Assembly: GCA_963737155.1 (NCBI GenBank)
Contig: CAVTRN010000001.1
Coordinates: 1,088,001-1,152,000, forward strand
Origin: Nitrospirota bacterium
Lineage (GTDB): Bacteria > Nitrospirota > UBA9217
Direction: 5' to 3'
Length of the DNA stretch: 64,000 nt
The notes under the pieces were generated by a model, which saw only the letters and a program-made list of their open reading frames with translations, made no database searches and was not told the origin of the DNA. A program made the position numbers and the translations under genes. This document shows positions 7,900 through 8,022 of the stretch, in pieces (positions within the stretch are counted from its first letter, which is position 1; every line of letters begins with the position of its first letter).

Positions 7900-8022
7900 G
7901 TGAAAAAGATCATGAGCAAAGAAGCAACAGCCAAGGAGGCAGCCTACTGGAACCTCATGAAACAGCTGGCAAAACAGAACCCCGGTACGGTATGCCACAA
8001 ATGAAAGGGCTGAAAGAGCTAG
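7900..8022 (+). CDS. Putative selenocysteine-containing RiPP precursor peptide, 40 aa (MKKIMSKEATAKEAAYWNLMKQLAKQNPGTVCHKUKGUKS)
   Basis: AGGAGGTGA SD at 7884-7892 and GTG at 7900. In-frame TGA at 8002 and 8011 continue a Cys-x-x register, then TAG at 8020. A SECIS-like hairpin follows, and a rSAM/SPASM gene is adjacent. Confidence 0.75.

Follow-up and report, generated by a model that had tools for sequence, protein, structure and literature searches.

The window considered here, a 64,000 nt stretch of the genome of a Nitrospirota bacterium (assembly GCA_963737155.1, contig CAVTRN010000001.1, positions 1,088,001 to 1,152,000 of the forward strand), contains a 40-codon gene with two in-frame TGA codons (7900-8022, forward strand). 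It is followed directly by a hairpin of the selenocysteine insertion sequence (SECIS) type (8023-8040) and, 160 nt downstream and in the same orientation, by the gene for a radical S-adenosylmethionine (SAM)/SPASM enzyme (8186-9229). An initial annotation, made from the sequence alone, had proposed that both UGA codons encode selenocysteine (Sec), giving a CxxUxxU motif that standard annotation would truncate or miss. Comparison with orthologous loci strongly supports this proposal through the retention of the TGA codons, synonymous variation downstream of them, a conserved hairpin and the presence of Sec machinery.

The peptide gene and its reading frame

From its GTG start the gene runs GTG AAA AAG ... 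GTA TGC CAC AAA TGA AAG GGC TGA AAG AGC TAG, or VKKIMSKEATAKEAAYWNLMKQLAKQNPGTVCHK-TGA-KG-TGA-KS-TAG when translated, and can be divided into a leader (residues 1 to ~29) and a putative core, TVC32-HK-U35-KG-U38-KS, ahead of the TAG stop. The codon positions are those of the frame as originally described: Cys32 (7993-7995), TGA35 (8002-8004) and TGA38 (8011-8013) are spaced three codons apart, a TAG at codon 41 (8020-8022) closes the frame, and the open reading frame (ORF) listing under translation table 11 ends it prematurely at 8004. A ribosome-binding site, AGGAGG (7884-7889), is located 10 nt upstream of the GTG, and a AAGGAGGTGA-like stretch, which appears as 'KGGE' or 'ERRU' in frame translations, is found upstream of the ATG in orthologous loci. 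As most orthologues have this ATG at the position aligned with the window's GTG, 31 codons upstream of the Cys, the 40-codon frame is the natural one.

The arrangement of one Cys and two TGA codons at 7900-8022 is more than a chance occurrence. The strict pattern TGY-N6-TGA-AAR-N3-TGA-AAR occurs twice when both strands of the 4.84-Mb genome are considered, and only the window copy is followed by the hairpin. The peptide has no match in Pfam at E values up to 10 and the window copy matches no NCBIfam model; a search of NCBIfam with 35 aligned peptides, again at E up to 10, returned only scattered chance matches, and in release 20 of that collection neither the peptide gene nor the enzyme gene has a model of its own.

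Conservation of the TGA codons and the SECIS-type hairpin

Orthologous loci were collected using the enzyme gene as an anchor, which identified 27 places in the window genome and 60 relatives. A further 80 loci came from named genome records, 79 of them being orthologues at 43-87% identity, and the 106 loci in total correspond to 100 distinct ones, which form the basis of the linkage counts. The named loci come from metagenome-assembled genomes (MAGs) with the labels Nitrospirota/Thermodesulfovibrionia, Desulfobulbaceae, Geobacteraceae, Syntrophales and Syntrophorhabdales.

The peptide gene lies upstream of the enzyme gene, in the same orientation, at 95 of the 100 distinct loci. Position 35 is TGA in every one of these 95; position 38 is TGA in all except L118, where it is TGC, and L094, where it is TAA, leaving the double-TGA arrangement intact at 93. 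The codons that close the peptide frame are mixed in kind (TAA at 46, TGA at 25 and TAG at 23 of the 94 loci scored), and an ordinary stop at position 35 would therefore not always be TGA. Judged by their substitutions across the 95 loci, the codons that separate and follow the TGAs have the pattern of coding sequence: Lys36 is specified by AAG in 82 cases and AAA in 11; residue 37 is mostly Gly (GGC 47, GGT 9, GGG 1), with Ser or Lys in its place elsewhere; residue 39 is always Lys, its codon alternating between AAG (63) and AAA (32); and residue 40 is mostly Ser (AGC 52, AGT 9). When 35 diverse members are aligned as proteins, E13, W17, C32, both TGA positions and K39 do not vary at all, and G29 of the leader is near-invariant. 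The comparison of homologues suggested alongside the initial proposal consequently came out in its favour, in that both TGAs are kept and the codons after the first are conserved; homologues that simply end at this point, with conservation lost after the first UGA, are not what was found.

Cys codons had also been anticipated at the Sec positions of homologues, and this was borne out in two cases only. At L118 (1331-1397) the tail is predicted to read U-E-S-C, with Cys at position 38 and Glu replacing Lys36, and the hairpin has an atypical UGGAU loop, whilst the database protein P0202 ends ...CLKCKS, having Cys at position 35 and a call that finishes at position 38. At L094 (1460-1526), the TAA at the second Sec position would truncate the peptide. 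P0202 was one of the 108 matches, at E up to 0.001, obtained when a profile of the 35-member alignment was compared with 1.84 billion representative proteins. Of these, 104, including P0202, end in C-x-x, being calls truncated at the in-frame TGA, which is what the initial annotation had expected of standard gene prediction. The others comprise P0132, in which TGA was called as W to give ...CHKWKSWKSW, two unrelated long repeat proteins and one divergent sequence. Public protein sets contain the peptide only in truncated form, as 'hypothetical' stubs of 34 residues, and neither the 95 loci nor the 108 profile matches included an all-Cys homologue.

Twenty-eight compact loci (L093-L120; for example, L100:1454-1520), mostly of the Syntrophales type, have no spacer between the two genes. 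Their candidate enzyme starts (ATG, TTG or GTG) overlap the Cys32 codon and both TGAs, and the hairpin is situated inside the first codons of the enzyme gene; three signals, namely the enzyme start, the peptide tail and the putative SECIS, are superimposed at these sites. The closing TGA present at 25 of the 94 scored loci was considered as a third Sec codon and rejected, as the downstream sequence is unconserved and the hairpin loop only ~7 nt away.

The hairpin itself, UGUUGCU-GGUC-AGCAACA as predicted by RNA folding, lies on the forward strand directly 3' of the TAG (8023-8040), with its loop 16 nt past TGA38 and 25 nt past TGA35. The distance from the second TGA to the end of the frame is two residues at 53 of 94 loci, three at 39 and four at 2; with a Sec residue only two residues before the stop (U-K-S-stop), the corresponding SECIS has to be located past the stop codon. 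Every one of the 95 loci has a stem of 5-8 bp at the matching place. Most of them have GGUC, GGUCC, GGUUC or GGUCA as the loop (the exceptions being L050, L057, L062, L074, L080, L110, L112, L118 and L120), and the distance of the loop from the second TGA is 15-19 nt, except at L037, L073, L080 and L090, where it is 22-24 nt. Over 92 distinct sequences, 90.1% of the cells in the stem are paired, both sides have changed in six of the seven pairs, and the closing pair is C-G in 51, U-A in 40 and A-U in one; none of 500 shuffles reached the observed values, and slid registers paired at 57% at most.

Comparable structures are associated with other genes of the window genome, with fdhA carrying GUGGCC-GGUCU-GGCCAC 18 nt after its TGA and selD carrying CCAAA-GGU-UUUGG 20 nt after its own. 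The rule for bacterial SECIS, as given in the available part of an inventory published in 2026, is a small apical loop that has a G within its first two positions and is located 16-37 nt from the UGA (PMC13188914); the peptide hairpin has G at the start of its loop and is placed at such a distance. It resembles the fdhF-type SECIS of E. coli in having a short G+C-rich stem and, 16-25 nt past the UGA, an apical loop of the GGUC type, but differs in having two UGAs to serve and in lying wholly within the 3' untranslated region, at spaced loci, or inside the 5' end of the next gene, at compact loci. Searching 7000-9500 against Rfam, at E up to 10, yielded nothing beyond chance eukaryotic matches. 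A 4 bp mini-hairpin between the two UGAs, GGCU-GAAAG-AGCU, was considered as a private SECIS for the first UGA and discarded, being only 7 nt away and also not kept in the Syntrophales or Desulfobulbaceae forms.

All four genes of the Sec machinery whose presence had been proposed as a check, selA, selB, selC and selD, were found in the window genome: selB scored 374 bits, selA 604 bits and selD, which has one in-frame TGA, 370 bits, and a tRNA-SeC gene is present. Among the 26 peptide-bearing genomes (the window genome and 25 of the 60 relatives), selA was detected in 22. A TGA-containing selD was detected in two of the remaining four (G016 and G021), together with tRNA-Sec in G021.

The radical SAM/SPASM enzyme and the intergenic stem

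The enzyme gene (8186-9229, forward strand, with an alternative upstream ATG at 8102) encodes a protein of 347 aa with the Pfam Radical_SAM and SPASM domains. It had not been mentioned in the initial annotation, and gives the peptide its likely role. In an alignment of 45 orthologues, C19-x3-C23-x2-C26 is invariant, as are seven SPASM cysteines at positions 252, 270, 308, 311, 317, 320 and 343. The enzyme falls below the curated cut-off of every NCBIfam model, scoring 185.7 against 500 bits for AhbD (TIGR04545), 176.7 against 500 for NirJ2 (TIGR04055), 158 against 400 for GeoRSP (TIGR04303), 162 against 400 for ACGX (TIGR04340) and 147 against 265 for mycofactocin (TIGR03962). The nearest solved proteins by sequence are SkfB (phmmer E 2e-13), PqqE, CteB, MoaA and anSME, and the predicted fold, with a predicted local distance difference test (pLDDT) score of 80.5, is nearest to those of SkfB, SuiB, anSME, PqqE, CteB and ChlB, at template modelling (TM) scores of 0.58-0.75 in Foldseek.

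When the enzyme (alignment of 45) was co-folded with the 34-residue table-11 product of the peptide gene (alignment of 47), the median score of three runs was 0.86, whereas the highest-scoring of three controls gave 0.01. Of 157 solved complexes, 116 attain the former value, as do 2 of 215 mismatched pairs. Agreement between the runs extends to at least 67% of contacts, the pLDDT of the partner is at least 71, and peptide residues 3-27 are placed on enzyme residues 47-61 and 283-291, with the invariant W17 of the peptide facing the invariant W55 of the enzyme. This model supports binding of the leader to the enzyme. As regards the distribution of the pair, the strict motif was not found in any of three relatives without the enzyme (G007, G008 and G019), nor in G020, which has an enzyme orthologue (55% identity) without the peptide.

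Between the two genes is a long stem-loop (8045-8117) followed by a U-rich tract, forming a terminator- or attenuator-like feature on the forward strand (8045-8128). The stem has a folding energy of -33.6 kcal/mol (z -2.85), none of 200 shuffles folding as well, and an alignment of 54 spaced loci gives the consensus of its arms as GGCAGATATGGC...GCCATATCTGCC, followed by TTTTT. A simple terminator scan of 7700-8300 found nothing, and a crude count of strong hairpins with six or more T in 12 nt identified 25 of the 67 spaced loci; the main support for a terminator therefore comes from the alignment consensus and the fold in the window. Leaky terminators are often placed after precursor genes, and the intergenic stem is read as a putative example of one.

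Interpretation, alternatives and known systems

We consider it probable, on comparative sequence evidence, that the gene encodes a peptide with two Sec residues, inserted by means of one post-stop SECIS, and that this peptide is a partner or substrate of the radical SAM/SPASM enzyme. Its C-terminus is very probably C32-H-K-U35-K-G-U38-K-S, and it is most likely a dedicated partner of the enzyme and, in particular, its substrate. Both in-frame UGAs of the 40-residue peptide would be read as Sec under the direction of the single SelB-binding hairpin at 8023-8040, past the UAG. The conserved helical leader (E13, W17) would dock on the enzyme, and a P-G hinge (G29) may let the C-x-x-U-K-x-U-K tail reach the active site. 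A 7-Cys SPASM domain leaves an open ligand site on the first auxiliary Fe-S cluster, as in CteB, and a Cys or Sec of the tail would probably ligate this site. The 5'-deoxyadenosyl radical could then cross-link Se or S to carbon, or oxidise Sec at its beta-carbon in the manner of SbtM and anSME, to produce a selenium-containing modified peptide or a peptide-derived cofactor, with the terminator-like intergenic stem potentially keeping the peptide in excess over the enzyme. What computation shows is the conservation of the UGAs and of the coding pattern beyond them, the SECIS, the Sec machinery, the linkage of the two genes and the predicted docking of the leader; actual insertion of Sec, action of the enzyme on the peptide, the kind of modification, be it cross-linking or oxidation, and any role in the cell are inferred.

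That no all-Cys homologue turned up in either the 95 loci or the 104 truncated forms from the database points to a need for selenium itself. It is possible, although we put this forward only tentatively, that the loci represent widespread selenium-obligate peptide natural products or peptide-derived cofactors, made by an enzyme lacking the recognition element (RRE) of RiPP systems, whose peptides are synthesised on ribosomes and modified post-translationally, and relying on one shared SECIS, in which sulfur is unable to replace selenium. Such an inability would account for there being no all-Cys homologue among ~200 sequences, and the organoselenium product might then contain selenoether cross-links, selenooxazole-like rings or a Se-ligated metal site.

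Several observations weigh against a Sec-containing substrate of the enzyme. A single hairpin must serve two UGAs 9 nt apart, the first of them at a spacing of 24-27 nt. Conservation of the tail at the 28 compact loci is confounded by dual coding, the 67 spaced loci being unaffected. In the genomes G032 (63% complete) and G033 (86% complete), no selA, selB, selD or tRNA-Sec was detected above the cut-offs; missing Sec genes in incomplete MAGs are a caveat rather than a contradiction. The co-fold took in peptide residues 1-34 and left the Sec-bearing tail unplaced, and solved complexes of leaders with maturases exist (SuiB-SuiA, for instance), which may in part lift its score. No adjacent peptide gene was found beside the enzyme orthologues of L036, L053, L054, L063 and L083; the first of these, whose enzyme has 55% identity, comes from a 100%-complete genome with no motif anywhere, and the enzyme can therefore exist without the peptide. 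No gene for a protease or exporter, and no RRE/PqqD domain, was found within 1.5 kb of the loci. Lastly, the sequencing runs listed as containing the locus included none of RNA, and those of DNA had small shares of the sampled words.

The five enzyme orthologues without a peptide, and the lack of a nearby protease or exporter, would suit an unmodified small selenoprotein that stays with the enzyme as a stable subunit or serves it as a redox partner. Its C-x-x-U-x-x-U tail might act as ligand to a metal or an Fe-S cluster, or might supply electrons or selenium, the enzyme having its substrate elsewhere, such as a tetrapyrrole. C-x-x-C-x-x-C is the classic spacing of ferredoxin cluster motifs, the best NCBIfam models, AhbD and NirJ2, describe tetrapyrrole enzymes, though the scores are far below cut-off, and the tight docking predicted is as appropriate to a subunit as to a substrate. 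We nevertheless regard this alternative as unlikely, since the bipartite build of the peptide (conserved helix, P-G hinge and short C-terminal core) and the intergenic stem are features typical of a precursor paired with its enzyme, peptide maturases provide the nearest solved folds, and the 7-Cys SPASM pattern matches enzymes in which a Cys of the substrate ligates the auxiliary cluster, as in CteB.

Two rare regulatory-type codons lying near each other where a short ORF finishes, with a stable stem and U-tract ahead of the enzyme gene, could alternatively represent a selenium-sensing leader, in which passage of the ribosome over the UGAs, dependent on the supply of Sec-tRNA, would control the stem-loop and thereby enzyme expression in an attenuator-like manner. 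This appears very unlikely, given that the amino acids of the leader are conserved across phyla (E13, W17 and C32 being invariant) and predicted to bind the enzyme, that ribosomes at UGA35 and at the UAG would be 18 nt apart with neither reaching the stem at 8045, and that the 28 compact loci are without any spacer or terminator. It is scarcely credible that translation ends at the first UGA to give a 34-residue Cys peptide, with the downstream conservation reflecting only an RNA element such as a terminator or protein-binding hairpin. Gene callers do read the frame in this way, and four peptide-bearing MAGs are without detectable selA; yet position 35 is uniformly TGA, whereas the true stops are TGA in only 25 of 94 cases, and the second in-frame TGA is retained at 93 of 95 loci. 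Furthermore, third positions vary between and after the TGAs while Lys39 does not change, Cys is found at either TGA position in rare homologues, and the hairpin shares its SECIS loop and spacing with that of fdhA in the window genome.

For the favoured reading, a Sec-containing peptide as partner or substrate of the enzyme, the closest known system is SbtA/SbtM (thio(seleno)oxazole, 'selenobiotic' or 'selenobacteriocin'; TIGR04081 and TIGR04082), in which a small precursor with two or more UGA-encoded Sec residues similarly stands beside a radical SAM/SPASM enzyme in anaerobic, Desulfobacterota-type hosts. Within the accessible texts it is the only Sec-containing radical SAM RiPP described (PMC9204691; PMC13188914), the inventory including a row for Selenobacteriocin with SGUG and 2 Sec (PMC13188914). 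By contrast with SbtA, which has a G-G-U-G motif, the peptide family has C-x-x-U-K-x-U-K, and neither the window peptide nor the 35 aligned peptides match TIGR04081. The enzyme scores 137 bits against the TIGR04082 cut-off of 350, covering only positions 198-516 of 516, and is without the N-terminal ~190 residues of SbtM.

A second group of known systems consists of SkfB, CteB/SCIFF, SuiB, PqqE and anSME, which share with the enzyme the CxxxCxxC motif and SPASM cysteines, provide the best structure matches (Foldseek E 7e-16 to 5e-13, TM 0.60-0.75) and are likewise comparable in the small co-oriented upstream gene and predicted docking of the leader. However, their identity to the enzyme is only 16-21%, the enzyme starts at the radical SAM core without an RRE/PqqD-like N-terminal domain, and the natural core of the window peptide would hold Sec. 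AhbD and NirJ, the best-scoring NCBIfam models, are of similar size and have a SPASM-type C-terminus, and some enzyme orthologues bear the Joint Genome Institute (JGI) name 'AdoMet-dependent heme synthase'; against this, the scores fall far short of the 500-bit cut-offs, no genes of the heme pathway were seen nearby, and the enzyme is tied to the putative Sec peptide at 95 of 100 loci.

With regard to selenoproteins, the inventory of 119 prokaryotic families lists, in its available part, U-x-x-U and 'UXX-star' families as well as selenobacteriocin (PMC13188914). The UXX-star (NF041114, NF041211), KCU-star, FmdB-type UxxU and metal-binding UxxU families are similar in their C-terminal Sec or U-x-x-U spacing, but none of their hidden Markov models matches the peptide, and the same portion of the inventory reports no radical SAM partner for them (PMC13188914). 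No C-x-x-U-x-x-U peptide with a radical SAM partner was found in the accessible parts of the literature, which does not fully exclude a prior description. The pair appears to constitute a second family in which UGA-encoded selenopeptides are accompanied by a radical SAM/SPASM enzyme. If so, it would combine a different peptide and a different enzyme subfamily with a compact form of recoding, in which two UGAs depend on one post-stop hairpin. Common in anaerobic Nitrospirota, Desulfobulbaceae, Geobacteraceae and Syntrophales MAGs and as yet unannotated, it is a target both for annotation, through a new selenoprotein model and a new radical SAM subfamily model, and for organoselenium biochemistry, as well as a system in which to learn how a single bacterial SECIS may serve two nearby UGAs.

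The surroundings of the pair are varied. Upstream in the window are zwf (5454-7025) and pgl (6812-7780), and between these and the peptide gene is a weak sigma-70-like promoter match on the forward strand, GTGACA-16-TATGGT (7828-7855), which agrees with the consensus at 9 of 12 positions and is a consensus match only; two promoter-like sites were observed in the region against 0.6 expected from shuffles. At the Nitrospirota-type loci L053, L054, L063 and L083, a small membrane protein gene (...GEWWKMIIIGAVFG...) occupies the place upstream of the enzyme gene where the peptide would be. Downstream at L036, inspection by eye indicated a TusA-like gene and a gene for a YeeE/YedE-like membrane protein, families associated with the handling of sulfur and selenium.

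Recurrent neighbours within 1.5 kb, all of them following the enzyme gene, are YceI-like genes (21 of 100 loci), NAD-dependent epimerase genes (16) and OmpA-like genes (12), with neither a transporter nor a protease among the recurrent ones; the two largest flank clusters were discarded as antisense reads of the peptide region. The YceI-like (PF04264) gene lies downstream, on the strand of the enzyme gene, in Nitrospirota, Desulfobulbaceae and Syntrophales (for example, L065:2282-3133 and L114:2545-3186). In the window, the NAD-dependent epimerase gene (9309-10250) is split over three frames (9309-9494, 9491-9829 and 9900-10250), which represents either frameshifting or assembly errors, orthologues such as L068:2769-3776 being intact. 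Beyond it, genes recognised by eye as encoding an OmpA/Pal-like lipoprotein (10504-11049) and a YbgF/CpoB-like tetratricopeptide repeat (TPR) protein (11134-12054) look like part of a tol-pal region.

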